Of a DNA stretch of 64,000 nt, positions 1 through 32,585 are shown piece after piece. The DNA lies in assembly GCA_037445065.1 (NCBI GenBank), contig JBBILD010000004.1:32001-96000 (forward strand), given 5' to 3'. The notes under the pieces are model-generated. The model saw only the letters and a program-made list of their open reading frames with translations. It had not been told where the DNA came from and did no database searches. Numbering within the stretch: the stretch's first letter is position 1; every line of letters starts with the position of its first letter. The translations under genes and the position numbers were made by a program. This DNA is from Myxococcales bacterium. GTDB lineage: Bacteria; Desulfobacterota; Binatia; HRBIN30.

Positions 1-348
1 ATAGGCGCCCGCCGGAAGTTCAATTCGATACTGCCCGTCTAGATCGGACTGGGTCTTCCGATTAGTCCCGACCACTTCGATCCCTGCCTCGATGATCGGC
101 AGCCGCGAGCGCGCGTCTCGGATCACGCCCGTGATCGTCCCCTTCGCTTCCTGCGCGGCTGGCTGGCCGGCACTTTCCATCGGCAGGGCGGAAACAACGG
201 TGGCCACGATGGCCGCCGCCACCCAACGGAGCAAAGTGGCGAGGGGGCGAAGGGGGCTGAGCGAGCGCTTGTCCTGATTTGTTGCAGCGGCACGCAGCGT
301 CGGAAGTGCACGGCCGAGAGTTTGTGCGTTCGTAGCTCGCTGAGTCAC
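1..348 (-). CDS. Probable TonB-dependent receptor, N-terminal part (signal peptide + carboxypeptidase-regulatory-like domain); runs off the window start
   Basis: Not in the ORF track. Manual minus-strand translation gives LLRWVAAAIVATVVSALPMESAGQPAAQEAKGTITGVIRDARSRLPIIEAGIEVVGTNRKTQSDLDGQYRIELPAGAY, typical of the N-terminal domain of TBDRs. In-frame GTG at 348, upstream stop at 358-360; tonB/exbBD nearby. Start uncertain. Confidence 0.75.
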   Translation of the reverse strand, partial: MTQRATNAQTLGRALPTLRAAATNQDKRSLSPLRPLATLLRWVAAAIVATVVSALPMESAGQPAAQEAKGTITGVIRDARSRLPIIEAGIEVVGTNRKTQSDLDGQYRIELPAGAY

Positions 349-382
349 GCCGCGCTTTCAAGCAAGCGACTGTTGGCGCGCG

Positions 383-465
383 GTTACAGCCAAATGAATT
401 CTTGGTGAAGCTCCTTGTCCGCAAAACTTCACCGAAGCTTTGCTGTGGTGTGACCCGCGCTTCAC
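383..465. promoter_or_regulatory. Two Pho-box-like 11-bp-periodic repeat arrays in the divergent intergenic region
   Basis: Minus strand: TTCAC (405-409), TTCAT (394-398), GTAAC (383-387). Plus strand: TTCAC 428, TTTGC 439, GTGAC 450, TTCAC 461. All spaced exactly 11 bp. Confidence 0.55.
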
Positions 466-722
466 GAGCGCCCGGTAATCTGCGGCGCCGATGGAACGAG
501 AACAACGCTTAGGTGCCGCTGGCCGGGGGATGGGAACGTGCTGGGGTACGCGGCGCCAGAAGGAGGTGACTGTATGCGGGCAACTGAGTTCGTTTGATGG
601 CAGACCATTGGTACGCGCGAGCGATGGGCAAAAGTCCAAGCGCGCAAGTTTGGAGCCGCCCGAAGCAGGAGAAGTGGGCGGTCGATCGGACAACACAACA
701 GCTTTGACGGAGGTTCGACAAC

Positions 723-2135
723 ATGAACGATTCAAGAAATACGAAGCGTAAGCAATGGGCCACGCGCCGGGCGGTCCGCACCGTTGCGGTGGGGATCGTC
801 GTGGGTGCAGTAGTGGGCCCCTCCAGTGCGCAGGACGCGCCAAAATGTGCGGCCGCAATTGGCAGAGAAGTACGTGCCTTAGGGAAGTTGGCCGCGCAGG
901 GTCAGGATAAGTGTCATGGCTTGGCGAATAAGTTCGCGGTGCCTGGGGGCTTCTGTAACGACGTCGAGGGAGTGCCGTTCACCGTCCTGGACGGTGGTCG
1001 GTTCGTGAAGGCCAAAGCGAAGAGCTTAGCCAAGTTGCACGGGCCCACGGGCAAATGCCCGTCCCCGGCTGCCGACGCGGTCTTGGATGTCTTGCCCGGT
1101 GGAAACCTCGTTAACAAGCTTCCGTCGGTTCAGGAGCTCGTGACTGAGCGAGCGAGCACGATCCTGGGCGCGGCGAATCTGAATGGAGACGTAGCCAAGA
1201 TCCGCTGTTTCAAGGCGATCTCGGCGACTCGGCGGACCGTTGCGGATAAAATGATGAGCAAAGCGGTCGCTTGCCAGAAGACGAAAACTCCCGGAAGCCC
1301 GCTCGACCCTACGTGCCTGGACGACATGTCGCTCGCGAACTTCCTTGCAGGTCGGGCGACTGCTTTGCAGACAGCGTGTACTGGACTCACGGGATCTGAT
1401 GTCGGGGCTTGCGACCCACTGCCGCAATGCGTCATTGAGGCGGCGCTGGCTGAGGGCAAGGCGCTGGCCAGCCAGGCGTATCCAGGGCAGAATTGCACGA
1501 AGGGAGCGCCGAGCCCTCAGGCCCGCACCGCTTCAGTCTCGATCTCAACTCCCACCGAACTCGGCGGGGTGACGGTGCTCATTCGTTACCCGCGCTTCGA
1601 TGCTGGTATCCCGGACAATGGCAGTGACATCCCGTCCACGACGCTGGATAACGTGGTGCCTGCCTTCACCGACGCGTTCGACCTTGACGACGGAGTCCGA
1701 GTGTCGGCTTTGGACAGCAATGGGATCCAATCCGGCCACGTGTTCGACGTAAAGTTCGATGTGTGTCGCCCGCTCGTTCCGGAGGGTCTGTGCAGCGTGA
1801 CGACGAGCCAGACGTGCACGGCTGGAAATCAGTGTCGGCCACCTGCCTGCCCGAGCTGCAAACCGGCGAACCAGTGCACCATTAGCAACGCGGCCTGTAC
1901 GAGCGACGCAGACTGCGGACCGGCGGGTGGAACTTGTGGCGAGAAATGTCTCCCGCAGGGGCGCTCGTGTAGTTTGAGTCAGTTTTTGAATTGCCAGACC
2001 GACCAGGATTGCCCCCTCACTGAGACGTGCCTCTCGCAACGGGCTCTCACTACCTGCACGGTCGAAGCCGCTGCCGACACCAGCGGGAATCCGGTGGAGG
2101 GGGTCAGTTGTAGCGTCGTGATCAGTGAACCGTAG
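723..2135 (+). CDS. Secreted Cys-rich protein with N-terminal helical Cys repeats and a C-terminal cohesin-like beta-sandwich interrupted by disulfide-rich repeats
   Basis: Signal peptide (VAVGIVVGAVVGPSSA-Q); GGAGG upstream; cohesin-like pattern LGGVTVLIRYP...GVRVSALD..GIQSGHVFDVKFD...CTVEAAADTSGNPVEG. Confidence 0.7.
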   Translation: MNDSRNTKRKQWATRRAVRTVAVGIVVGAVVGPSSAQDAPKCAAAIGREVRALGKLAAQGQDKCHGLANKFAVPGGFCNDVEGVPFTVLDGGRFVKAKAKSLAKLHGPTGKCPSPAADAVLDVLPGGNLVNKLPSVQELVTERASTILGAANLNGDVAKIRCFKAISATRRTVADKMMSKAVACQKTKTPGSPLDPTCLDDMSLANFLAGRATALQTACTGLTGSDVGACDPLPQCVIEAALAEGKALASQAYPGQNCTKGAPSPQARTASVSISTPTELGGVTVLIRYPRFDAGIPDNGSDIPSTTLDNVVPAFTDAFDLDDGVRVSALDSNGIQSGHVFDVKFDVCRPLVPEGLCSVTTSQTCTAGNQCRPPACPSCKPANQCTISNAACTSDADCGPAGGTCGEKCLPQGRSCSLSQFLNCQTDQDCPLTETCLSQRALTTCTVEAAADTSGNPVEGVSCSVVISEP

Positions 2136-2161
2136 CTTGTGTGAAAGAAGGAGAGAGAACC

Positions 2162-3886
2162 ATGAGACAATTCGAGAAGCGATGGATCTTCGTAGCAGCC
2201 ACACTGCTCACGTCCGCATGGGTGGGCCGGCCAGCAGGAGCTGCCTGCACTGGTGACCCGAACGGAGGCGGCATTTCGCTCGCCGACGTGTCGTTAGTTC
2301 TGACCTGCGTCAACAATCCTGGGGCGGCGGCCTGCGCCAGTGCGTGCGGCGGGCAGGGAGTGCTGGACTGCGCGGACGTCAACCTCGACGGGCAGTTGAA
2401 CATCAGTGACGCGGTGATTTTGCTCAACGAGACGAGTCCGGGTTGCAACCGTAACGTGGTGCCGATGTGCCAGAGTGCGGGACCGACCCTGCCCTGCGGC
2501 AGCACGATTGCGAGCGACATCACCAGTAATGTGACCTTGGCTGGGTGTGAGTATTTCTTGGATGGCACGGTCTTCGTGCAGCCCGGCTCAGTAGTAACCA
2601 TTCGCCCGGGTGCCGTAATCAAGGGAAGGAAGGTCTCTTCGGACGGCAGCCCGAGCGCTTTAGTTTTCCTGCGCGGCGACTGCGCGGATCTCGATCCGTT
2701 CACGGCGCGCATCAACGCGGCCGGTACGCCGAGCAGCCCAATCGTGTTCACCTCCGATCAGGCTCCGGGCCAGCGCGCCGCGGGTGATTGGGGGGGTGTG
2801 GCGTTCATGGGCTGTTCGGAAGTCAACTTGCCAGGCGGACAGGGAACTCCGGAAGGACTCGTGGGTGTGATTTTTGGTGGCGGGTCTACGCCACAATTGA
2901 ATGACACGAGCGGATTGGCACGTTACGTTCGGGCCGAATTCGCGGGCCGCGAACTCTCGCCCGACAACGAGTTGAATGTCTGGACGCAGAACGGACTCGG
3001 CAGCTGCACTCGCTTCGACTTTCTCCAAGCCCACATGGGGAAGGACGATGGCTTCGAGTGGTTCGGTGGAACGATCAACCAGAAGTACCTCGTGGCTACG
3101 GCGAATGCGGACGATCAGCTCGATTGGCAGCTCGGAACGGTTAGCAAAATTCAGTTTGCACTCGGTGCCCAGTTCGCGGGAAATCTCGATACTGCGGGAA
3201 GCCACGGGTATGAGTCGGACAACAACGAAAACAACTTCGCAGCCACGCCTGTTTCCGATCCGCGCTTCTGCAACGTAACGCTGATCGGCGCTGCTGGCCA
3301 AGCGGGTCATCCGGCGGGCGACTTCTTCGGCTTCTTCCACCGGCGCGGTACGGGCGGGCGGCTTGCCAACCAGTTGGTTGTCGGGTTCCAGGACGCTGCC
3401 GTTCAGCTCCGCGACGCGGCCACTGGCCAGCACGCTTGCTCCGGGACTTGCCTGGTGTCGGGCAATCCGCGTACGGATGGCGTGACCACCTGCGACGGGT
3501 CACCGTTTACCCTGGGAGGCACGGCGCCGATCTTGCGCCACTATAGCCTGGTCCTCTTCAACAACGGTACCGGCGGTACGGAACTCTGCCGCAACAAAAC
3601 CGGTTCCGGGAATACGGGTGCTGCTTGCAATTCCTGCGAGTACACGGCGCTGTTGCAAGCGGCGGGTGAGATCTCGACGAGTGATCCAGGTTTCAACACG
3701 GCGGGTCCGTTCCCCGCGCCGGGCGTGGTGGACCCACGGCCGACGAACCCTGTGCCAGGGGTCGACTGTGGTGCCCTCTTCAACGACCCGTTCTTCGACA
3801 ACGCGCCCTACGTCGGGGCATTCGATCCGAACGGTCCGAACTGGATGATTACTCCAGGCGGATGGATCAGCTTCGTGACGCAGTAA
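2162..3886 (+). CDS. Secreted protein: N-terminal dockerin-like Ca-binding module + beta-helix domain of the TBDR-associated surface protein type
   Basis: Signal peptide; GDPNGGGISLAD and DVNLDGQLNISD loops; family motifs PIVFTSD, GDWGG, YVRAEFAG, DDGFEWFGGT; ATG 2162 after an AG-rich RBS. Confidence 0.8.
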   Translation: MRQFEKRWIFVAATLLTSAWVGRPAGAACTGDPNGGGISLADVSLVLTCVNNPGAAACASACGGQGVLDCADVNLDGQLNISDAVILLNETSPGCNRNVVPMCQSAGPTLPCGSTIASDITSNVTLAGCEYFLDGTVFVQPGSVVTIRPGAVIKGRKVSSDGSPSALVFLRGDCADLDPFTARINAAGTPSSPIVFTSDQAPGQRAAGDWGGVAFMGCSEVNLPGGQGTPEGLVGVIFGGGSTPQLNDTSGLARYVRAEFAGRELSPDNELNVWTQNGLGSCTRFDFLQAHMGKDDGFEWFGGTINQKYLVATANADDQLDWQLGTVSKIQFALGAQFAGNLDTAGSHGYESDNNENNFAATPVSDPRFCNVTLIGAAGQAGHPAGDFFGFFHRRGTGGRLANQLVVGFQDAAVQLRDAATGQHACSGTCLVSGNPRTDGVTTCDGSPFTLGGTAPILRHYSLVLFNNGTGGTELCRNKTGSGNTGAACNSCEYTALLQAAGEISTSDPGFNTAGPFPAPGVVDPRPTNPVPGVDCGALFNDPFFDNAPYVGAFDPNGPNWMITPGGWISFVTQ

Positions 3887-3901
3887 GTAATGGTCGCACT
3901 C

Positions 3902-3954
3902 GGGCAGGGGCACGGCGACGACTCGCTCGCCGTGCCCCTGCCCAGTTTCTTTTT
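3902..3954 (+). terminator. Rho-independent terminator or mRNA-stabilising hairpin
   Basis: Perfect 17-bp stem (3902-3918 / 3927-3943) followed by AGTTTCTTTTT. Confidence 0.8.
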
Positions 3955-3967
3955 GGAGGAACGATCC

Positions 3968-4507
3968 GTGAAGAGATTCTTGGTGGGTTTCCTAAGCCTC
4001 TGCGTTGCAGTGGCTGCGTCGTATTGGGTGGGAGCCTCAGGAGCAGTGAAAGAAGGCCCCGCTCGGCCTCCGGCTGCGCAGGCCGCCCGCGGCCCGGAGG
4101 ACGTGCTGCGCCAAATGTTTGCGGCACTGCAGCAGGGGGATTTGCAGGCTTTGGAAGGACTGTTGGTTTCGGACCACGAGTATCAGGAACTGATTCTTCC
4201 TGGCTCCGTGCGTCCCGGAGAGCCCGCGATCCGGATGCCGACCGAGAAGGCGGAGTTTTACACACGGTTGCACCGCACGAAGAGCCAGTACGCGCTGGCG
4301 CATTTGATGAATTCGGTACGGCAGGCCGGGGCGGAGCTGAGCGCTGTGCGGTGGGAAGGATCGGTCAAGCATTACGCCACTTACACCTTGCTCCCTAGGC
4401 CCGTGTTGCTGGTTCATGGGCCAGAGGGAAGCGAGGAACTTCGGCCCGGACTGCTTGTAGAATTGAACGGCCGAGTACGCGTCCTTTCGTACTTCAGCGA
4501 TGACTGA
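3968..4507 (+). CDS. Hypothetical exported protein
   Basis: GGAGG RBS before GTG 3968; hydrophobic N-terminus; same direction as flanking genes. Confidence 0.7.
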   Translation: MKRFLVGFLSLCVAVAASYWVGASGAVKEGPARPPAAQAARGPEDVLRQMFAALQQGDLQALEGLLVSDHEYQELILPGSVRPGEPAIRMPTEKAEFYTRLHRTKSQYALAHLMNSVRQAGAELSAVRWEGSVKHYATYTLLPRPVLLVHGPEGSEELRPGLLVELNGRVRVLSYFSDD

Positions 4508-4542
4508 GAATCGGACCCGCGATCGGCGGGTGGGGCAGGATT

Positions 4543-4580
4543 TTCACGCACTGGTAACCATTTCGTCACTGCTGCGTAGC
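4543..4580 (+). promoter_or_regulatory. Pho-box-like array upstream of tonB
   Basis: TTCAC 4543, GTAAC 4554, GTCAC 4565, GTAGC 4576: four units at an 11-bp period. Confidence 0.6.
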
Positions 4581-4618
4581 CTTGGCATGTTAGTTTGGCC
4601 GCCAGTTTGGTTACCGTG

Positions 4619-5380
4619 ATGGAAGCGGCAGTGCAGATTTCCGGTTGGGGTGGCCTCGGTTTTCCAGAAGACCAGCAGCAGCAACAGCGCTGGTTGATTG
4701 CAGCGGTTGTCACCGTGACGCTCTATGCGCTGGCAGTGGTGCTGGTCTGGAGATTTGGCTCCGCACGGACGCCAGAGAAGAAAGAGCCGCCGCCAATCGA
4801 GGTAACGTTCCGGCAGGAGGTCCTGCCTCCTGCGCCGCCTGCTCCCGCGCCGGTCGTGGCACCGCCGCCGGCGGCAGCGCCGGTGGTGCCGAAGCATCTG
4901 AAGGTCCGCAAAGTCGAGCAGCCGCGCCCACCGAAGCCCCTCACGGCGCCGAAAGAAGTGCCGCAAGCCCCGCCGAAAGAAGCGGATCCAAGCGAAGACA
5001 AGGGCGTTGAGGTGGCTGGTGACGCGACCCTTGGCGGCGACCCGGCAGGACTGGAGGGAGGATTGGCGGGAGTGCAAGCGCCGGTGGAGCCGATTGCCCT
5101 ACCCGAAGATGCGGACCCGCCTGTGCCACTCCCCTCTAACCCAATCCCGGAGTACCCGGCACAGGCCAAAGCCGAGGGTAAGGGCGGTCTTGTCGTTCTC
5201 AAGGTGGTGATTGGAGCGGATGGGTTTGTGAAGGACGTGCAGGTGCTGCGCGGGGAGGAGCCGTTCGCGAGCGCGGCGATTCAGGCGGTGCGGCGGTGGA
5301 AGTACCAGCCAGCCCGATACAAGGAGCAGGCGATTACGGTGTACCGGATTATTCAGATTCCGTTCAAGCTGAAAGCTTGA
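4619..5380 (+). CDS. tonB: Energy transducer TonB
   Basis: N-terminal TM helix, Pro-rich linker, TonB_C motif PEYPAQAKAEG..G.VVLKVVIGADG...AVRRWKYQPA. Confidence 0.9.
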   Translation: MEAAVQISGWGGLGFPEDQQQQQRWLIAAVVTVTLYALAVVLVWRFGSARTPEKKEPPPIEVTFRQEVLPPAPPAPAPVVAPPPAAAPVVPKHLKVRKVEQPRPPKPLTAPKEVPQAPPKEADPSEDKGVEVAGDATLGGDPAGLEGGLAGVQAPVEPIALPEDADPPVPLPSNPIPEYPAQAKAEGKGGLVVLKVVIGADGFVKDVQVLRGEEPFASAAIQAVRRWKYQPARYKEQAITVYRIIQIPFKLKA

Positions 5381-5403
5381 GAGAGCACGGAGGAGAAAAC
5401 AAC

Positions 5404-6168
5404 ATGCAGTGGAATTGGCAAGAGATGTGGCAACACATGGGCCTGCCGGCTCTGATCGTGGCAGGCGTACTGGCGACGATGGGCTTCGCCTCGCTGTTGG
5501 TGGTCGTCGAGCGAATGGTGCTGTTTACTCGGGCGAAGTCCCAGCGCTCGCGCTTTCTGCAAGCGGTGGCCGAGGACTTAGCCGAGGGCCGCTTCGAGCG
5601 GGCCGCCGAGGTGGCGCAGTCTTACCCTGGATCACCCGTGGCACGGGTCATCGGGGCAGCGTTGCAAACCCACATCCACGCGCTTCGACATCACGGGGTA
5701 GGAAGCTTGTCGCCGGTGGAGAAGACGCAACGGCACATGGAGCGGTACATCGAGCAGTTGGGTGCAGAACTCCGGCGTGGCTTCGCGGTGCTCTCCGCGG
5801 TCGGTTCCACTGCTCCGTTTGTCGGTTTGCTAGGCACGGTGCTGGGGATCATCACTGCCTTTCAAGGGATCGCCGAGAGTGGTTCTGGCGGGCTCTCCGC
5901 GGTCTCCGCCGGAATCGCTGAAGCGCTGGTCGAGACGGCGTTGGGCCTAGTCGTCGCGATTCCTGCCGTGTTGGCGTTCAATTTCTTGACGACTCGCGCC
6001 AACGCCGAGGAGACCGCGGTGAAGAACGCCCTCGGGGAAATTTTAGACCGGCTGGAGGATTTGGAGGACGTCGGGCCCGTAGCGGTTGCGAGTGGCGCAA
6101 GCCCGGTGCGCCCCGATCGCCGGCCATCCTGGGAGTCTTATGCTGCGGCGGTGGAGGTCGCAGGGTGA
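5404..6168 (+). CDS. exbB: MotA/TolQ/ExbB proton channel protein
   Basis: STAPFVGLLGTVLGII and GIAEALVETALGLVVAIPA motifs. Confidence 0.9.
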   Translation: MQWNWQEMWQHMGLPALIVAGVLATMGFASLLVVVERMVLFTRAKSQRSRFLQAVAEDLAEGRFERAAEVAQSYPGSPVARVIGAALQTHIHALRHHGVGSLSPVEKTQRHMERYIEQLGAELRRGFAVLSAVGSTAPFVGLLGTVLGIITAFQGIAESGSGGLSAVSAGIAEALVETALGLVVAIPAVLAFNFLTTRANAEETAVKNALGEILDRLEDLEDVGPVAVASGASPVRPDRRPSWESYAAAVEVAG

Positions 6169-6626
6169 AACGCCGCAGCATCAAAGGCCACTTCACCGCG
6201 GTGGTACCAGAGATGAACGTGACCCCATTGGTGGATGTCGTCCTGGTGCTGCTCATTATCTTCATGGTGGTGGTGCCGCAGTTGCAACGCGATATCCCGG
6301 TGAATCTGCCATCGGTTCTCAATCCAGATCCGGATGTTCCACAGTCCGTGGAGCCGTTGGTGATCACGCTAGCGAGAGACCAAAGCTTCTTCGTGGGCGA
6401 ACGTCGCGTAAGCGAGGGAGAACTCCAGGACATCTTGCAAGAGACCCGTGTTGCCTCGCCGGAGCGGCGCGTGGTGTTGCGTGCCGATCGCGAGCTGCCC
6501 TGGCAGCACGTCCGTTCCTTCTTGGCCGTGGTGCAAGAAAGGGGCTTCCGCGGCTCTTCATTGATGGTCGGGGATCGCTCGCAACGAACCGGCGACGAGG
6601 CAAAGGAACGGGAGGAGGACCGCTGA
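6165..6626 (+). CDS. exbD: Biopolymer transporter ExbD/TolR
   Basis: EMNVTPLVDVVLVLLIIFMV motif; overlaps the exbB stop. Confidence 0.9.
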   Translation: MKRRSIKGHFTAVVPEMNVTPLVDVVLVLLIIFMVVVPQLQRDIPVNLPSVLNPDPDVPQSVEPLVITLARDQSFFVGERRVSEGELQDILQETRVASPERRVVLRADRELPWQHVRSFLAVVQERGFRGSSLMVGDRSQRTGDEAKEREEDR

Positions 6627-6627
6627 C

Positions 6628-7083
6628 ATGGCGATGACCGTTGGCTCCGGCGCATCGTCGGGTCGAGTACCTGAACCGAGCATGAACGTGACCCCGTTGG
6701 TGGATGTTGTGCTCGTGCTCCTCATCATTTTCATGGTGATCACACCTCTCATGAACAAGAACTTCTGGGTCCATACCCCGAAACAAGAAAAGGTCGAAGT
6801 GGAACAGATCTCGCCCGACAACGCACCGCTTGTTCTCCAAGTGCGCTCCGACCTTAGCCTCAACGTAAACGGGGCACCCGTGGAGCGCGGAGAGCTAGCC
6901 GGGCGCCTGCGGCGCATGTTCGCGGCTCGTGATGACCACGTGCTCTTCGTGGATGCGGCGGACGAAGTTCCGTATGGCCAGCTAGTCGCGATCTTGGACC
7001 AAGCCCGCGAAGGCGGTGCGGTGACAATCGCTCCGCTGACCACACCTTTAGCTTCGCACGGGGGAGCGCCAGGAGGGGGTTGA
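6628..7083 (+). CDS. exbD: Biopolymer transporter ExbD/TolR (second copy)
   Basis: MNVTPLVDVVLVLLIIFMVITP motif. Confidence 0.9.
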   Translation: MAMTVGSGASSGRVPEPSMNVTPLVDVVLVLLIIFMVITPLMNKNFWVHTPKQEKVEVEQISPDNAPLVLQVRSDLSLNVNGAPVERGELAGRLRRMFAARDDHVLFVDAADEVPYGQLVAILDQAREGGAVTIAPLTTPLASHGGAPGGG

Positions 7084-7086
7084 ACG

Positions 7087-7461
7087 ATGAATCGAGTTCA
7101 CGGCCCGGAACTCGGGCAGGTCAAGCGGATGCCCACGGCTTCGCGCGTGCTGGACTTCGGTCCGATCAAAATTGATCTCGACGCTTACGAAGTGGAAGTG
7201 TGCGGCGAGCCCGTAGGGTTGTATCTACGGGAGTTCCAGATCCTCGCGCTGCTGTGCCAGGAGCCACGGCGGGTGTGGACCCGCGAAGAAATCGTACGTG
7301 CGATTTGGGGGGAAGAGTCTGCCGTGGATGTGCGCACAGTGGACGTGCACATCCGCCGCTTGCGCCAACACATGGGAGGACTGCGGCGAGCGGGCGCAGC
7401 GGTGGTGACTGTTCGTGGAGTCGGGTACAAGTTCGACCCGCGCAAGCTGCGTGATCTTTGA
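7087..7461 (+). CDS. Stand-alone OmpR/PhoB-type winged-helix DNA-binding protein (no receiver domain)
   Basis: REFQIL, VWTREEI, RTVDVHIRRLR, TVRGVGYKF motifs; only 124 aa. Confidence 0.85.
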   Translation: MNRVHGPELGQVKRMPTASRVLDFGPIKIDLDAYEVEVCGEPVGLYLREFQILALLCQEPRRVWTREEIVRAIWGEESAVDVRTVDVHIRRLRQHMGGLRRAGAAVVTVRGVGYKFDPRKLRDL

Positions 7462-7819
7462 GGGCGCCGCGATTGTGGCGGGTGCTGGTCCGGGAGCACT
7501 GCGGTGCGATCGGGCGATGGTGGGATTCGCGGCGAGTGCTCGCCTCGAATCATACTGCAAAGGATCTGTTCGGAGGGGCGCACGACCGTCCGCCCCAGCG
7601 GTCTATGCGAACGGGCTGACTGGAAGCGCTCGCCTGTGTTCTTTGAGCCTCCCGTAATCCCGCTCCCGGTCCGGATGGGCTGTCGGGGCGTGTTTTCGGA
7701 AGCCGGCAAGGCCATCACACTCGAGGGCCTGCGAAAAAGTTAAGATTGCTGCCGCATGAGTGGGATCGCAGGGCCTCTGGTAGCCCTTTTTCTGCACGGT
7801 ACGAGGGAAGCCTCGAACT

Positions 7820-8080
7820 CTCCTTATTCACGGAGCCATGATGGTTGCCACCGATGCTTCCTGCGAAGGCATCGCTGAAAGAATTCCCGCGCCTAGCGCG
7901 AGCTGGGGGCTCCACCTTGCCTGACACTCGGGCGACCGCTCCATGGTTCGCACCGGTGCTGCCGATTGCAACGTGTGAGCCCTAACCAGGGCTGGCCACT
8001 CACCGGCGATCCAGCCGCGTTGTGCTGATGACCGGCTGGCCGATATCGGTGGAGAGCAGCTCGGCTCCCTGTTCACGGAG
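7820..8080 (-). other. Structured non-coding element bounded by imperfect 16-bp direct repeats; possible IS110-family non-coding remnant
   Basis: CTCCTTATTCACGGAG (7820-7835) and CTCCCTGTTCACGGAG (8065-8080); several internal hairpins; no credible ORF. Confidence 0.3.
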
Positions 8081-8291
8081 TCCGATCGAGCCCATCCGGC
8101 CCTGCTCCTGTACCCTGGTGTTTCGAGGGAACGCCGCTCGGGCCCGATCGGGAATGGATGGTTCGCCTGTCTCCCGCTCGACACGGAGCCGGTGGGCCTC
8201 ATGGTCTGCGGCTCCTCGGTGTGCCTACTTCCCCGAGACCCACGCTTCGCTTTGCGGCTGCGGGCGGCCGCTTCGGCCTCGATTTCGTCCG

Positions 8292-10175
8292 TCACTTCCA
8301 GTCGCCGGCGACCTCGTACGAGTCGTTGTTCGACAGGTCGGTGATGAACGAGCCGTTCGCCTGCATACGATAGATCTTCGGGCGCCCGTTCACGAACGGC
8401 CGGAACACGATGTAGTTTCCGTCGGGTGACCATATCGGATGTTCGTCGTCCGAACGGTCCGCCGTGGAGGTGAGCTGCACCGGGTCGGACCCGTCCACGT
8501 TGGCGACGAAGATGGCAAGTGAGCTGGTTCCCTCGGCGCTGCGCCCGGCGTAGACCAGCTTCGTGCCGTTAGGGGAAACCTCCCCGAGCTGCTCATAGGC
8601 CTCGTTTGTGGTGATGCGAACTACGCCCGAGCCGTCGGCGTTCATCCGGTAGATTTCCCCGAATCTGCTGTCCCGATTCGATGTGAAATAAATGTAATCG
8701 CCATCCGGGGAGAAGGCCGGGGAAGCGTCGGTCCAGTCTCCCGAGGTCAACTGCGTCACCTGCCCACTGCCAAGTTCGTAGCTGAACAGGTTTGTCCTTG
8801 TGAAGTCGTACTCCGCGTAAACGATTCTCGCGCCGTCGGGCGAGAACGTCGGGTAGTATTGGAAGTTTTGCGTTCGCAGGGCGGTGACGCCCGAGCCGTC
8901 CGCGTTCATGATGTGCAGCCGGCGGTCGCGCGTGAAGGCGATCTTCGTCTTGTCGTGGTTCCACTGCGGCCACTCGTCAAACCCGCTGCCGCTGGTCAGT
9001 TGAATCACGTCGCTGCCGTCTGCGTTCATGACGAAAATGTGGGAAACGTTCCGATCCGACCCAGGCCGGGAGGACTTGAACAGGATCTGTCCGGTGAGCA
9101 CCGGCGTGGGTAGGATCGTTCCTGTGATCGTGGGCGTGGCCGTGGCTGTCGGGCTCGGGGGCCGCGTCGGAGTGTTGGTGGGGGTCGTCGTTGGGGTGTG
9201 CGTGAGGCCGAGCGCGGAGGGAACGACGTCGGCGAGGCGCTGGTCAATCGCGACGAACTGTGTACCCGGCGCGCCGCCGGTGACGGTCGTGAACCTACGG
9301 CGAATGTCGACCGAAACCTTGTAAGTCCCCGGTCCCGCGCCGTAGGCGCTGACCGGGATCGAGAACGGCGAGGTCTTGTCGCCGTCGTCGCTGTTGAAGG
9401 CGGGAGTGAAACTTGGCGTAAAAATGGAGATGCGCTCGTTATCGCCCTCGTACTCCCAGGAGACCTGCGAGCCGTCCGGAGCGACCGTGATGCCGCCCGG
9501 AGCCGTGATGACCACCGAGGCGGTACCGATGGAGGTCACCGTCGTCACGGTGTAGGTGGCGCCGGGCACGTACGCGAGGCTGAGGTTGCTGCTTTGGTAT
9601 TGGGCAAAGAAGCGACTGTCAAACGTGGTCTGGCCGGTATACGGAATCGTCACCGTGCCCCCTGGTCCCGTCAGCGTAACCTCGGCCGTGCTCTCCGGCA
9701 CGCCGTCAACGGTGAGCAGGAGCGAGAAGAAAGAAAACTCGGACGTCGGCGACACGCTGTGCAGGTAGGCGCTGTTCGGGTGCCAAAAAATCCCGTTCGG
9801 AACTCCGAACGTCGGCGTTGCGGTGGGGCTTTCCACAGCCGAAGGAGTCGCCGTCGGCGTGCTCGTCGGACTCGGGCCGGGACTTCCCACCGGGCAACCA
9901 TTCAGGGCGTAGTTCACGGCGACGATGATTTCGTCAATGGTCACGGTGCCGTCGCCGCTGCGGTCCGCGCCGAGGCACGTCTCGGGCATCGCGGTTCCGA
10001 GCGCGATATTCACCGCCTTCACCAGCTCGTCAATCGTCACCTCGCCACTCCCGTCGCAGTCGCCCGCGCAGGTCTGTCCGCGGGCTACGATCGGCCCTGC
10101 GAACAGAACCATTGCGAGTAGCACGAACCAGAGCACGGAAAGCCGCACGGCGCGGCGCACCCTCACGCTTTGCAC
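8292..10175 (-). CDS. Secreted protein: N-terminal dockerin-like module, Pro/Thr linkers, C-terminal TolB-like (PD40) beta-propeller
   Basis: AAGGAGG RBS before GTG 10175; CAGDCDGSGEVTIDE...ADRSGDGTVTIDE...ALNGCP; repeated P.FSPDG / MNADGS units. Confidence 0.85.
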   Translation of the reverse strand: MQSVRVRRAVRLSVLWFVLLAMVLFAGPIVARGQTCAGDCDGSGEVTIDELVKAVNIALGTAMPETCLGADRSGDGTVTIDEIIVAVNYALNGCPVGSPGPSPTSTPTATPSAVESPTATPTFGVPNGIFWHPNSAYLHSVSPTSEFSFFSLLLTVDGVPESTAEVTLTGPGGTVTIPYTGQTTFDSRFFAQYQSSNLSLAYVPGATYTVTTVTSIGTASVVITAPGGITVAPDGSQVSWEYEGDNERISIFTPSFTPAFNSDDGDKTSPFSIPVSAYGAGPGTYKVSVDIRRRFTTVTGGAPGTQFVAIDQRLADVVPSALGLTHTPTTTPTNTPTRPPSPTATATPTITGTILPTPVLTGQILFKSSRPGSDRNVSHIFVMNADGSDVIQLTSGSGFDEWPQWNHDKTKIAFTRDRRLHIMNADGSGVTALRTQNFQYYPTFSPDGARIVYAEYDFTRTNLFSYELGSGQVTQLTSGDWTDASPAFSPDGDYIYFTSNRDSRFGEIYRMNADGSGVVRITTNEAYEQLGEVSPNGTKLVYAGRSAEGTSSLAIFVANVDGSDPVQLTSTADRSDDEHPIWSPDGNYIVFRPFVNGRPKIYRMQANGSFITDLSNNDSYEVAGDWK

Positions 10176-11452
10176 GGTCAGTCCCTCCTTGAACGGGCGC
10201 GCCGGCCACCCCGATTCGGGGATCAGGCGGTCCATTCGGGCGCGGCTAATTCGCACGGCAGAGCGAGGCTGTCAAGGCGCGCGTAGCGACGTTGCGGAGA
10301 GCTGGGTGTGTTTTCGCCGGCTGTTGCCGCCCCACGCGCGCATGAGTTTTCTCGGCAGTTACGTGCGGACAAGCGCGCGCCGACAGCGATCTGTCATCGA
10401 GAAGGAGACGTCGCGAATTCCAGGACAGCGCCCGAGTTCGGCGGCATCTGTGGTATCCATCGCAGACCTCTGCACTTCTTGCTCGATCCACCCGCCGAAT
10501 GCTCGTGCGGCGACCCACGAACGCTGTGGGCGCTTGCTGAACGAGCGGGTCGGTGCCGCATGCTTCCGCCACGTCCACCGGACAGGTTCTGGCTCCGGAA
10601 GGCCGACAACGGCGCTCGGAACGAAGCTAACGACCGCAACACTGCCCAAGTTCCGAGGGACACGGCCTGCTTTCATCCACGGCAAGCCGCCGAAAAGCGG
10701 TGAAAGGGTTCCTCGCTTAGAAGGGGAGAGCGGTTCGGAACGGGGGAATTCGTCGGGTGGTCCTCGCGACTGCTTCGGCGGCCGCTCGGCAATTTTTTCG
10801 ATGCGGCAGGAGTCATTCGGTTCACCCGGTTGCGCAGGATGGCATTGGCGTGCTTTTGCGAACGCGCAGCGACTGCGAGGGTGCGCACAGCTGCGACTTC
10901 GCTGTGTGGTGATCCATGAGCGCACGTCCAACGCATGGTGCCCAAATCGGAGCGGTAGCCTTCTGCGGATGCGGTGCACCCGACAACACAGCTTCAATCA
11001 GTGCCCCCGTCTGCGGGCGCGCCTTCGTGGCCCAAGTGATTGAGCGCGGGGGCCCCGCTCCACATGTCTTTGGGTGAACACTCAGCGTGCCGGCCTACTC
11101 GGTAGTGTGGCTATCTCAGGACGCAGGGTCGAGGACACTTCTCCGACAACGCATGCGGGTTTAAGGCTTCCACCGTGCCGACCTCGATTCGCGCGGTCAG
11201 GATTGCCTTGGGCGCCGCACAAAACAGCGCTTGTCTCCCTGACTGCCAGGGCAGTCGTGCTTCACGTGCTGGCGAGATGTTGCACAGCTCCTTCGCCAGT
11301 GGCGCTGCGGCTAGGTCGCCCAGAGGCATACGGCCCCAGGTCCCGGCGAAGGTCCCCCCCGGGTCCTGTTGTCCAGCTCGGCGTCACGGAACGGTGCGCG
11401 CGGGAATGGGTGAGGTTGCCTCAACAGCGGCGCGCGAGTAGGCAGGGGAGGC

Positions 11453-31556: not shown

Positions 31557-32585
31557 GCCGTCCGTCGTCGAGCGGCCGACACGGCTCTGCGAGCGCTCGC
31601 CGCGACCATCGCTCTTTCGCAGTTCACGCAGGGCTTCGATCCACGCTGCGCACAGCAGCGGGAAGAGAATCTCGTGGTGGCCGGTGATGTGGTAACCGCG
31701 CCCATCGGGCTGGGTAGGACGTTGCAGGACGTTCATTTGCGGCCGGTAGTGGCGCAGAAAATCCAAGTTGACGGTCAGCAGCTTGCGGGTGCGGTAGCCG
31801 AGGTTGCGCGCCAAGCTCACTGCTTTGACAAAGACCTCGGGGAGGATCACCGCCGAGCCCAGGAGGAGAAACGCACCTCCCTCCAGGGATGCGGCCAGGC
31901 GCACCAACGTGTGAAAGTCAGCCAGGCTGGCGCGTCCGATCGCGGCTCCGTCCGCACTGGGGTGCATGTGAACAATATCGGTCCCGATGGCCACGTGCAC
32001 CGTGATGGGAATCTCGTAGCGGTGTGCGGCAACGAAGATGCTGTTCTCGCGGTAGGGAAGCTTGGCCGAGGCCATGGCGCGCGCCAGCGCACTTCCGAGT
32101 CCCTCGCCCGCCGCCGCCTGCGCGGCGGCACGGTTGAGAAACTCGGCTGTCTCGCGCGCCATGCCGAAGCGGCCGTCCAACAAGTGCGCGGCGACGTCTT
32201 CGGAAGTGCGGCCCGCAAACGCCAGTTCGAAGTCATGCACCATGGCTGCGCCGTTGACCGCCAAGCCGTCAATCAGCCCGCGCCGCATGAGATCCACGAT
32301 CACGGGGCCGAGGCCGACTTTGATCGGGTGCGCTCCCATGCCGAGCAAGATACATTTCCCGGCGTGGTGCCGGCGAGCCAGTTCGCGTGCGATCGTGCGC
32401 AGATCGGCAGCAGCCAGAAACGAAGGCAGGGAGTCGAGAAAGGACCGTAGCGACTGCCCCACCCGGTACGGCCGCGCCAGCCCATCCACCTGTACCAGAG
32501 AGGGGCGCCGCGACAACGGGAACGTGCGCACCCGCGACAAGTCTATATCCGGAAGAGTTTTTGCGCGCCGCCGTTTTGCGGTCAT
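31548..32585 (-). CDS. Deoxyhypusine-synthase-like protein
   Basis: GAHPIKVG, HDFE, TSEDV, GTDIVHMHP, GSAVILPEVFVK, GHHE; coupled to gmhA. Confidence 0.75.
   Translation of the reverse strand: MTAKRRRAKTLPDIDLSRVRTFPLSRRPSLVQVDGLARPYRVGQSLRSFLDSLPSFLAAADLRTIARELARRHHAGKCILLGMGAHPIKVGLGPVIVDLMRRGLIDGLAVNGAAMVHDFELAFAGRTSEDVAAHLLDGRFGMARETAEFLNRAAAQAAAGEGLGSALARAMASAKLPYRENSIFVAAHRYEIPITVHVAIGTDIVHMHPSADGAAIGRASLADFHTLVRLAASLEGGAFLLLGSAVILPEVFVKAVSLARNLGYRTRKLLTVNLDFLRHYRPQMNVLQRPTQPDGRGYHITGHHEILFPLLCAAWIEALRELRKSDGRGERSQSRVGRSTTDGSR

Follow-up and report, generated by a model that had tools for sequence, protein, structure and literature searches.

A TonB-dependent receptor locus with a beta-helix protein

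We analysed a stretch of 64,000 nucleotides (hereafter the window) of a Binatia genome deposited as Myxococcales bacterium (assembly GCA_037445065.1), corresponding to positions 32,001 to 96,000 of contig JBBILD010000004.1. The first 7,461 nucleotides of the window carry the locus described here, in which the gene of a TonB-dependent receptor (TBDR) is divergent from a + strand run encoding an exported protein of 470 amino acids (aa) with a cohesin-like domain, a 581-aa beta-helix protein with a dockerin-like N-terminus, a 205-aa protein, a tonB-exbB-exbD-exbD set and a small winged helix-turn-helix (wHTH) protein (Table 1). The whole genome amounts to 3.79 Mb in 46 contigs, and the closest protein relatives of the locus are labelled Candidatus Binatia. 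All the Binatia records returned by our searches are metagenome-assembled genomes (MAGs), with no cultured representative among them. In the following, genomes are labelled G, contigs C, fetched loci of relatives L and members of the cohesin-like family P; the window is thus G000:C4:32001-96000, and positions given without a label are those of the window.

Table 1. Features of the TBDR locus (positions in the window).
Feature	Position	Strand	Description
TBDR, N-terminus	1..348	-	signal peptide and start of CarboxypepD_reg; remainder at G000:C4:29433-32000
PHO-box-like site	383..411	-	three units with 11-bp phasing (GTTAC / ATGAA / GTGAA on the + strand), directed towards the TBDR gene
Second conserved block	427..466	+	CTTCACC ... 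GTGACC-N4-CTTCACG; GTGACC and TTCACG invariant in four aligned genomes
470-aa exported protein	723..2135	+	signal peptide; Cys-containing helical N-domain; C-terminal cohesin-like beta-sandwich
581-aa PF28492 protein	2141..3886	+	signal peptide; dockerin-like aa 37-96 (nt 2249-2428); beta-helix about aa 115-581
205-aa protein	3890..4507	+	N-terminal hydrophobic segment; conserved directly 3' of PF28492 genes
Second PHO-box-like triple repeat	4541..4569	+	TTTTCAC..GGTAAC..CGTCAC, 26 bp upstream of the tonB open reading frame
tonB	4595..5380	+	TonB_C, 64 bits
exbB	5296..6168 (as listed)	+	MotA_ExbB, 109.9 bits
exbD copy 1	6165..6626	+	ExbD, 76.9 bits
exbD copy 2	6628..7083	+	ExbD, 68.3 bits
124-aa stand-alone wHTH	7087..7461	+	OmpR/PhoB-family winged helix; Trans_reg_C, 84.4 bits, without receiver domain

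By combining the list of open reading frames (ORFs) with family scans, we found all the genes that the original prediction had described from the letters alone. It had also guessed, from a manual translation of nt 1-348, that a probable TBDR is encoded there. Once extended beyond the edge, this ORF is 971 aa long (G000:C4:29433-32348) and the guess proved right, because the CarboxypepD_reg (51.2 bits), Plug (PF07715; 35.2 bits, cut-off 23.9) and TonB_dep_Rec barrel (PF00593; 89.0 bits, cut-off 27) domains are all present. The top NCBIfam match of the receptor is TIGR01782 (TonB-Xanth-Caul), with 235.7 bits, under the cut-off of 310. On the other strand, the true start of exbB probably lies downstream of its overlap with tonB. 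Just beyond the window, downstream of the TBDR gene, two further genes encode proteins of 313 aa (C4:28475-29416) and 219 aa (C4:27769-28428), each combining an N-terminal two-repeat dockerin-like module with a C-terminal cohesin-like domain.

The 581-aa protein is the only PF28492 core of this genome. Its membership of this family rests on the precomputed Pfam annotation of its homologs, on the name of its Atlas cluster and on a beta-helix model. More than 2,215 relatives were found, PF28492 being precomputed on all 120 that were listed, the nearest of which is 96% identical, and the closest Atlas clusters are 100% PF28492, named Beta_helix_4 or "pectate-lyase like beta helix". The AlphaFold2 (AF2) model is a right-handed beta-helix with a mean predicted local distance difference test (pLDDT) score of 92.1 and a predicted template modelling score of 0.89. 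When this model was searched with Foldseek, the top solved match was the pectate lyase Pel9A (1ru4; E=1.0e-3, probability 0.99), followed by tailspikes and alginate epimerases, so that all the best rows were beta-helix proteins.

We then looked at the surroundings of PF28492 genes in 76 loci, taken from contigs of one genome per species. In 64 of them, the PF28492 gene adjoins the gene of a protein related to the TBDR (phmmer E 1e-19 to 0), which mostly lies immediately upstream and on the same strand, and the pair occurs in Bacteroidota, Acidobacteriota, Gemmatimonadota, Ignavibacteria, Fibrobacterota, Binatia and other groups. Among the 12 loci without a TBDR match, nine have less than 700 bp of contig upstream. 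In five of the nine Bacteroidota loci that were scanned, the pair is flanked by a response regulator whose top NCBIfam match is PhoB, with 197.6-227.4 bits, under the cut-offs of 270 and 296.2. Four of these loci (L027, L043, L047 and L052) present in order a TBDR, a PF28492 protein, a PhoB-like regulator (197.6-226.5 bits) and a PhoR/PnpS-like kinase, and the fifth (L040) the regulator only. In another locus, L031, the genes lying just upstream encode PHO4, PhoU_div and Metallophos.

This architecture has been described before, in three systems. First, in Caulobacter crescentus, ElpS (CC0170) is described as an outer-membrane lipoprotein of about 50 kDa, produced upon phosphate starvation, encoded beside the TBDR CC0171 and released with the help of a type II secretion system (T2SS) encoded adjacent to it, the TBDR/ElpS pair being conserved in many bacteria (Le Blastier et al. 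2010, PMC2996285). Second, in Flavobacterium johnsoniae, the TonB-dependent transporter (TBDT) Fjoh_0545 (pf07715, pf13715, pf14905) and the "FII" pectin-lyase-fold lipoprotein Fjoh_0546 belong to the phoBR operon, or "PUSIV", and are reported among the genes and exoproteins most strongly induced on depletion of inorganic phosphate (Lidbury et al. 2020, PMC8115612). Third, BT4055 and BT4056 have been proposed to form a pair of non-SusC TBDT and surface "lid" positioned on the outer face of the transporter, whose proximity is said to be conserved in 621 genera; the BT4056 lid is presented as a pectin-lyase-superfamily lipoprotein related to both Fjoh_0546 and ElpS (Price and Arkin 2023, bioRxiv 10.1101/2023.03.17.533168). 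The original prediction had taken the whole system to be undescribed. As far as the core is concerned, this does not hold, since a TBDR with a pectate-lyase-like partner induced by phosphate starvation is already known as ElpS/CC0171, Fjoh_0545/0546 and BT4055/BT4056.

The Binatia locus resembles each of these pairs in one respect and departs from it in another. Like CC0171, its TBDR sits beside a putatively extracellular partner, here with the addition of PHO-box-like sites and a linkage to pst genes (see below). Unlike ElpS, which is described as a lipoprotein, the 581-aa protein bears a dockerin-like module and lacks a conserved lipobox, and cohesin-like genes and tonB-exbBD adjoin its gene in place of the T2SS of ElpS. 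With Fjoh_0545/0546 it shares a TBDT with Plug, CarboxypepD_reg-like and, in Flavobacterium, OMP_b-brl_3 domains, next to a pectate-lyase-like exoprotein that is encoded beside phoBR in that organism; in contrast, the Flavobacterium partners are lipoproteins or proteins with tails of the type IX secretion system (T9SS), and have no cohesin or dockerin parts. The conserved proximity noted for BT4055/BT4056 is the same phenomenon as the 64 TBDR-flanked loci counted above, but the lid is described there as lipid-tethered, whereas the Binatia form suggests a tether made of a dockerin-like module and cohesin-like neighbours, of which the consulted part of the preprint makes no mention. By analogy with these pairs, it is very probable that the core of the locus is a Pho-linked pair of the TBDR/ElpS type, with the 581-aa protein as putative ElpS/BT4056-type surface partner of the receptor. 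A homolog search starting from the Flavobacteriales member L047 gave 120 listed PF28492 proteins, none of which is named F. johnsoniae.

The Atlas also contains, at rank 15, a cluster of PF28492 proteins of 779 aa (feature score 0.85) that is dominated by Gemmatimonadota and in which 16% of members carry Pfam Cohesin. This cluster could possibly represent an independent fusion of a beta-helix partner with a cohesin, and is given here as a lead only.

PHO-box-like sites and neighbouring pst genes

OmpR/PhoB-family proteins use 11-bp-phased repeat units, the Escherichia coli box being CTGTCAT-N4-CTGTCAT. By aligning the divergent intergenic region with that of three relatives, we found an invariant GTTAC-N6-(G/A)TGAA-N6-GTGAA with this phasing upstream of the TBDR gene. 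Judging from its conservation, the second block of the same region is a candidate operator or promoter element of the operon on the + strand. We built a weight matrix from the TBDR-upstream site of four genomes and, with a threshold of >=16 bits, found five places in the whole genome, including the source site at 383-411. The two best matches besides the source site are C8:95926-95954, 60 bp ahead of the gene that opens oprP-pstS-pstC-pstA-pstB-phoU-phoB-phoR, and 4541-4569 (20.0 bits), within the 87 bp that separate tonB from the preceding gene. The TBDR, tonB and pst sites share the same orientation towards their downstream gene. Moreover, the tonB-upstream site is also present in L110, L111, L112, L114 and L013, and the TBDR-upstream site in L113, L114, L106, L107, L013 and L016, none of these loci having been used for the matrix. 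The exact pattern GTGAA-N6-GTGAA, with six matches in the genome for 3.2 expected, was uninformative.

A second line of evidence comes from gene neighbourhoods. In four of the five relatives searched (G041, G023, G050 and G068, not G014), a PstS-family gene is found within about 5 kb of the locus. In L010, whose PF28492 protein is 82% identical to the one studied here, the wHTH gene is directly followed by oprP (Porin_O_P), pstS, pstC and pstA, and the interval separating it from oprP contains a box of 15.2 bits. At the corresponding place in the window, about 830 bp after the wHTH gene (7462-8291) hold no convincing ORF. Thus, the locus seems to have been separated from pst by a rearrangement.

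The original prediction had called the 124-aa wHTH protein "PhoB-type". The resemblance stands at the level of the family, the top NCBIfam match being PhoB (TIGR02154); but the score of 83.7 bits misses the equivalog cut-off of 296.2, and the match is restricted to profile positions 128-226, the receiver domain being absent. The PhoB candidate of the genome itself, at C8:104042-104719 (within C8:103985-104752), reaches 267.2 bits. As a conjecture, the 124-aa protein may bind the same boxes.

It had also been supposed that the locus might serve phosphorus uptake. This link gained in silico support from the PHO-box-like sites common to the pst operon and from the pst genes beside the locus in four of five relatives. 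From the position and conservation of these sequences we infer that the sites are the PHO boxes of this organism, and the locus is probably controlled by phosphate starvation. Predicted boxes of this kind would provide a first handle on Pho regulation in Binatia.

The same data bear on whether phosphorus is the target at all. The locus could instead serve the capture and uptake of a carbohydrate such as an acidic polysaccharide, with the beta-helix protein acting as a lyase-like enzyme or a glycan binder in a mini-cellulosome. The nearest solved folds (Pel9A, alginate epimerases and tailspikes) would fit such a role, as would the CBM96 domain found on the cohesin-like protein of a relative (L106:16237-18306, 51 bits) and on one of 128 scanned members of its family; glycan binding was also raised for the FI-FIII proteins by Lidbury et al. 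(PMC8115612). However, these fold matches are weak (E>=1e-3, TM scores 0.2-0.3), no catalytic residues were identified, and Pfam and NCBIfam scans matched no glycoside hydrolase or lyase family to the locus proteins. In addition, the PHO-box-like sites are common to the pst operon, this operon adjoins the locus in relatives, and proteins of the same architecture are reported to respond to phosphate starvation in Caulobacter and Flavobacterium. We therefore regard a purely carbohydrate-directed system as improbable.

As a side observation, the PstC-like permeases encoded near these sites are unusually long, with 746 aa in L010 (L010:17973-20213, +) and 741 aa in the genome studied here (C8:98524-100749). 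In the L010 protein, a WD40/beta-propeller-like region at about aa 170-415 precedes BPD_transp_1.

Dockerin-like and cohesin-like modules in Binatia

The original prediction described the beta-helix protein as dockerin-like at its N-terminus and devoid of a lipobox, which an alignment of 51 closest homologs, the 581-aa protein included, bears out. In these sequences, the signal peptide is followed by CGD-x-N...D / CGD-x-N-x-DG...D, which makes two Ca-binding loop-helix repeats, and the dockerin-like module is conserved in all 51, with invariant residues including D39, D49, D79 and D90. Repeat 1 reads D39-P-N-G-G-G-I-S-L-A-D49, with a Gly at position 5, and repeat 2 is the canonical D79-V-N-L-D-G-Q-L-N-I-S-D90. 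Residues 37-96 align to the dockerin 2y3n_B of the PDB with a sub-threshold E=0.021. Pfam Dockerin_1 (PF00404) scores 13.8 bits on this N-terminus (E=0.069), and 13.0 and 15.0 bits on the 313-aa and 219-aa proteins, all under the cut-off of 22.9, and it is precomputed on seven of the listed homologs of the 581-aa protein. Different residues (T, Q, V, L, P or I) precede the first Cys, consistent with a signal peptidase I site. A conserved lipobox is therefore excluded in the 51 dockerin-bearing homologs. By comparison, eight of 12 non-Binatia homologs examined have a canonical lipobox, in many cases with an acidic segment after it, and others have a T9SS tail. Hence the two-repeat dockerin-like module appears to stand in place of the lipid anchor in the Binatia partner. 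As for the adaptor-like 219-aa protein, a lipobox (LSLGC) that we had considered was dropped, as it is not conserved in the L110 ortholog.

At least 52 ORFs of the genome carry a dockerin-like module; Pfam Dockerin_1 finds 13 at E<=0.01, seven over its cut-off. One of these at least 52 ORFs lies in the window shortly after the locus (8292-10256, -) and encodes a 654-aa protein in which an N-terminal two-repeat dockerin-like module (CAGDCDGSGEVTIDEL...) is followed by a Pro/Thr linker and a TolB-like PD40 beta-propeller (PD40 88.5 bits; TIGR02800 146.9 bits, under cut-off).

The other half of the presumed pair is the C-terminal domain of the 470-aa protein, for which 12 homologs were found. The domain spans aa 264-470 (about nt 1512-2135), with a Cys-rich insertion at about aa 346-442. 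Foldseek with the model of this region gave a non-cellulosomal cohesin (2xdh) as top match (E=0.024), and VIA-align superposed 107 residues on 2xdh with a Z of 8.9 and a root-mean-square deviation of 3.2 A, ranks 1-24 being all cohesins, in an alignment made with a low-confidence model; unrelated folds had a Z of 5.6 or below, save one pilin row at 6.7. These matches agree, within the limits of that model, with the cohesin fold foreseen for nt 1521-2130, and so do the boundaries. The C-terminal domains of the 470-aa, 313-aa and 219-aa proteins are mutually related (phmmer E 1e-7 to 2e-3), and the domain is found in this genome in these three locus proteins only.

With a profile built from 13 such domains, we searched 1.84 billion proteins and obtained 949 representative proteins at E<=0.001, 636 of them at E<=1e-10. 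Among the best 150, the domain lies within 15 residues of the C-terminus in 140, occurs as two or three tandem copies in 31, and is accompanied by a dockerin-like module in 22, N-terminal in 21 of them. One member (P0255) combines two cohesin-like copies with a canonical cohesin, and in three of the best 150 (P0299, P0365 and P0380) the same region matches a hidden Markov model of the genome's Pfam-positive cohesins (E 2e-7 to 6e-4). A DUF4215/myxo Cys-rich repeat precedes the domain in 64 of 128 scanned members. Our reading is that the domain represents a divergent cohesin family, a suggestion that draws on modelled folds and is weak at the level of sequence.

The N-terminal half of the 470-aa protein (aa 1-263; 723-1511) is helical, with regularly spaced Cys residues (C-x-x-x-I...K-C motifs). 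Its counterparts just upstream of PF28492 genes in relatives (for instance L013:7143-10001 and L114:4906-7494) are ORFs of 553-953 aa with many extra Cys-rich repeats. Neither a family nor a fold match was obtained for the N-terminal halves of proteins of this type.

In 2009, Peer et al. reportedly showed cohesins and dockerins outside cellulosomes to be widespread among genomes. The parts found here resemble the cellulosomal and non-cellulosomal systems (2xdh of Archaeoglobus fulgidus; the 2y3n complex) in having a dockerin-like part with two Ca-binding repeats and a cohesin-like part modelled as a jelly-roll of about 130 residues, and the locus family further shares with them tandem copies, "adaptor" proteins bearing both modules and lipoprotein-anchored members. 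They differ in that the host is a diderm and the context is TBDR-mediated nutrient uptake instead of polysaccharide-degrading enzymes. Compared with canonical cohesins, the locus domain fails Pfam Cohesin, has conserved Cys pairs and usually follows a DUF4215/myxo repeat.

We next surveyed 121 Binatia-class genomes, in which the cohesin-like domain was found in 38 and PF28492 in 32. The domain is present in all 23 genomes with a dockerin-bearing PF28492 protein, on the same contig and within about 6 kb in 22; the remaining one (G112) is a fragmented assembly in which the domain lies on other contigs than PF28492. By contrast, eight of the nine genomes whose only PF28492 match lacks the N-terminal module are devoid of the cohesin-like domain. 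Since Binatia genomes are kin, these counts are not independent, and the co-occurrence and the conserved gene order span six Binatia families (f1, f3, f4, f9, f12 and f13). The same partition was seen in the 76 PF28492 loci, with the domain in the four dockerin-bearing ones (L010, L012, L013 and L016) and in none of the other 72. In 10 of 11 distinct Binatia loci, a cohesin-like gene is immediately upstream of the PF28492 gene, the exception being L016. The arrays of cohesin-like genes vary in size, from three genes here to five or six in G014 and G068 and 10 in G117. Among the cohesin-like proteins of relatives, five are clear lipoproteins, each with a canonical lipobox as well as a linker rich in Gly (L106:12387, L114:11475, L114:12817, L113:2558 and the product of the last L098 gene), and others have an N-terminal dockerin-like module, like cellulosomal adaptor scaffoldins.

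The pairing also occurs without PF28492. In six of eight inspected loci that bear the domain and lack PF28492, another secreted protein, with about 290 aa and no known family, terminates in a dockerin-like module of the same subtype. In a second locus type formed by L098, L099, L100, L103 and L104 (from G107, G040, G022, G099 and G058, respectively), two proteins ending in cohesin-like domains adjoin the 290-aa protein, and in L098 a TBDR was confirmed beside it, one of the cohesin-like proteins being a lipoprotein. In L105 (G006), the dockerin-like and cohesin-like modules are fused in one 755-aa protein. As the loci of the 290-aa protein carry both modules, the pairing recurs in a second context. 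An apparent fusion of TBDR and cohesin in L098 (a 1665-aa stop-to-stop ORF with Plug and barrel) was rejected on reading the sequence, which showed a wrong frame that lacks stops owing to high GC; a separate lipoprotein gene, starting about 680 aa from the end of that ORF, encodes the cohesin-like part.

These surveys make it very hard to see the cohesin-like and dockerin-like resemblance as chance, or as generic similarity between beta-sandwiches and EF-hand-like repeats in genes that are mere neighbours. Such an explanation would draw on the family-level scores of both modules, which are under curated thresholds in this pair, and on the low confidence of the 470-aa model. It is opposed by the gene order conserved over at least six Binatia families, by the co-occurrence of the domain with dockerin-like modules in two different protein contexts and by structural matches that point consistently to cohesins, and we consider it highly improbable.

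Docking of the beta-helix partner and alternative sites

Whether the beta-helix partner binds the cohesin-like domain encoded next to it was addressed by complex prediction with residues 262-470 of the 470-aa protein and residues 30-108 of the 581-aa protein. The score was 0.39, against 0.00 for the best of three controls; the runs agreed in >=96% of contacts and the partner pLDDT was >=60. Of 157 solved complexes, 116 pass the mark used, as do two of 215 mismatched pairs, and the passes with scores of 0.60 or under comprise 18 of these 157 solved complexes together with both mismatches. The result counts as weak support. Neighbour docking, as proposed in the original prediction, is favoured by the co-occurrence in 23 of 23 genomes and, as regards binding itself, weakly by this score. 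We judge the chance that the partner docks on a locus-encoded cohesin-like domain to be slightly less than even.

Taking the very probable core and this docking together, we propose with a probability of roughly 0.55 that the locus is an ElpS-type uptake module of the Pho regulon, whose beta-helix partner is docked by locus cohesin-like domains. This proposal builds on the gene content, folds, conserved gene order, co-occurrence and operator-like sites described above. The TBDR would work with a surface-exposed, pectate-lyase-like beta-helix partner (PF28492) that probably captures or presents a phosphorus-containing substrate, and a dedicated TonB-ExbB-ExbD2 set would energise transport. Expression of the locus would be turned on through PHO-box-like operators common to the pst operon, and the last gene of the operon encodes a small PhoB-like DNA-binding protein that stands alone. 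In Binatia, the lipid anchor or T9SS tail used in most phyla would have been replaced by the two-repeat Ca-binding dockerin-like module, and the locus would have gained divergent cohesin-like proteins. There are three of these here (470, 313 and 219 aa), and relatives have up to ten, which include lipoproteins. By binding dockerin-like modules, the cohesin-like domains would keep the beta-helix partner at the surface beside the receptor, and possibly one another as well.

The most serious alternative keeps the same uptake core and denies the neighbouring cohesin-like domains their role as docking site. The dockerin-like module would then be a generic Binatia tag for export or anchoring that binds cohesins encoded on C11, or a Ca-stabilised N-terminal cap, and the beta-sandwiches of the 470-aa, 313-aa and 219-aa proteins would serve substrate binding, receptor contact or as a sorting signal. 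First, at least 52 ORFs carry the module, and canonical cohesins recognised by Pfam exist elsewhere in the genome, three in one lipoprotein of C11 and one at C4:196604; thus, the partner need not be a neighbour. Second, the locus domains themselves fail the Pfam Cohesin model. Third, the position of the domain near the C-terminus in 140 of the best 150 family members is what is expected of a sorting or anchoring domain, and the support from complex prediction is weak. On the other side, no other locus of the genome has the domain, which tracks the dockerin-bearing PF28492 protein across Binatia, being found in 23 of 23 genomes with the module versus one of nine without. Its top structural matches are all cohesins, and its tandem copies (31 of 150), one of them combined with a canonical cohesin, make a pattern that resembles a scaffoldin, not a sorting signal. 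In our view this alternative is rather unlikely, ranking below docking on the locus domains.

The C11 protein deserves attention in its own right. This 766-aa lipoprotein (L003:688-2988, -, = G000:C11) has a lipobox (LGGC), a long Pro/Thr linker and three Pfam Cohesin modules of 46.4, 29.5 and 25.4 bits (89.6 bits in total), and is a candidate scaffoldin-like docking site for many dockerin-like proteins. It is conceivable that both kinds of cohesins are used in a hierarchy, with the C11 lipoprotein binding the dockerins of the 313-aa and 219-aa adaptors, whose cohesin-like domains would in turn bind the beta-helix partner. The cohesin at C4:196604 (28 bits) belongs to a 765-aa protein (L005:607-2904, -, = G000:C4:~195710-198007) whose N-terminal half is rich in repeats and which has an acidic, Asp-rich segment close to its C-terminus; it is encoded on the same contig as the locus, about 100 kb past the end of the window.

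Several points weigh against our proposal of a Pho-regulated module with neighbour docking. As regards the docking, the C11 lipoprotein could be the real docking site, given the at least 52 dockerin-like ORFs and the canonical cohesins elsewhere, and the complex score is weak and its pass may reflect likeness to solved cohesin-dockerin complexes. The AF2 model of the 470-aa protein, on which the cohesin match is based, is poor overall (pLDDT 53.9), and VIA-align values of Z 8-9 are near the level that the tool calls common or borderline. Pfam Cohesin (PF00963) missed the locus domains both in a genome-wide search at E<=10, which hit seven places elsewhere, and on the isolated domain, and hhalign of the locus domains with the canonical cohesins of the genome gave a probability of 0.3%, a value that is uninformative because both alignments are shallow. 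Moreover, at E<=1e-20 no PF28492 match was obtained in 14 of the 38 genomes that carry the cohesin-like domain. As regards the phosphate link, the five box matches are no more numerous than those in shuffled genomes (4, 5, 7, 8 and 1), and the PHO-box reading therefore rests on the position and conservation of the sites. The pst operon of this genome lies on another contig (C8), and all the PhoB-like matches are under curated cut-offs. Finally, the link of the 581-aa protein to ElpS, BT4056 and Fjoh_0546 rests on family name, architecture and gene context.

More tentatively, our data can be extended to a cellulosome-like surface assembly of Binatia, induced by phosphate starvation and built round the TBDR, in which lipoproteins and adaptors bearing the divergent cohesin domain (3-10 genes per locus) would capture dockerin-tagged substrate-binding proteins. 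The captured proteins would be the ElpS-like beta-helix protein here and the unrelated protein of about 290 aa elsewhere, and the lipid anchor of every other lineage would thereby be replaced. If true, cohesin-dockerin pairs would gain their first functional context in the nutrient uptake of a diderm. It would also answer a question that the lids preprint raises in the part consulted, where the lid is treated as a lipoprotein and its export outside Bacteroidota is asked about, namely how TBDT partners stay at the surface in those bacteria (10.1101/2023.03.17.533168).

What appears to be new here is the Binatia variant, with a dockerin-like tag in place of a lipid anchor and arrays of cohesin-like genes at a Pho-linked TBDR locus; we found no description of this cohesin/dockerin variant in literature searches of which the result lists alone were screened. 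The TBDR/ElpS-type pair counts among the most widespread and least understood phosphate-starvation systems, with 621 genera according to the same preprint, and the Binatia form can be seen as a natural experiment, in which the same partner exchanges a lipid for a modular protein-protein tag and the presumed receptor modules of this tag are encoded alongside. If the modules bind each other, this would imply that the partner can work only when retained at the surface, would carry the biology of cohesin-dockerin pairs beyond Gram-positive anaerobes, where they serve polysaccharide degradation, to the uptake of nutrients by diderms, and would give a function to a divergent cohesin family of 949 representative sequences.

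The 205-aa protein encoded between the beta-helix gene and tonB gave no Pfam or NCBIfam match and no convincing fold, and the Atlas returned unnamed clusters only. Its relatives were found in 10 of the 76 PF28492 loci, as well as in L106 and L108-L114.

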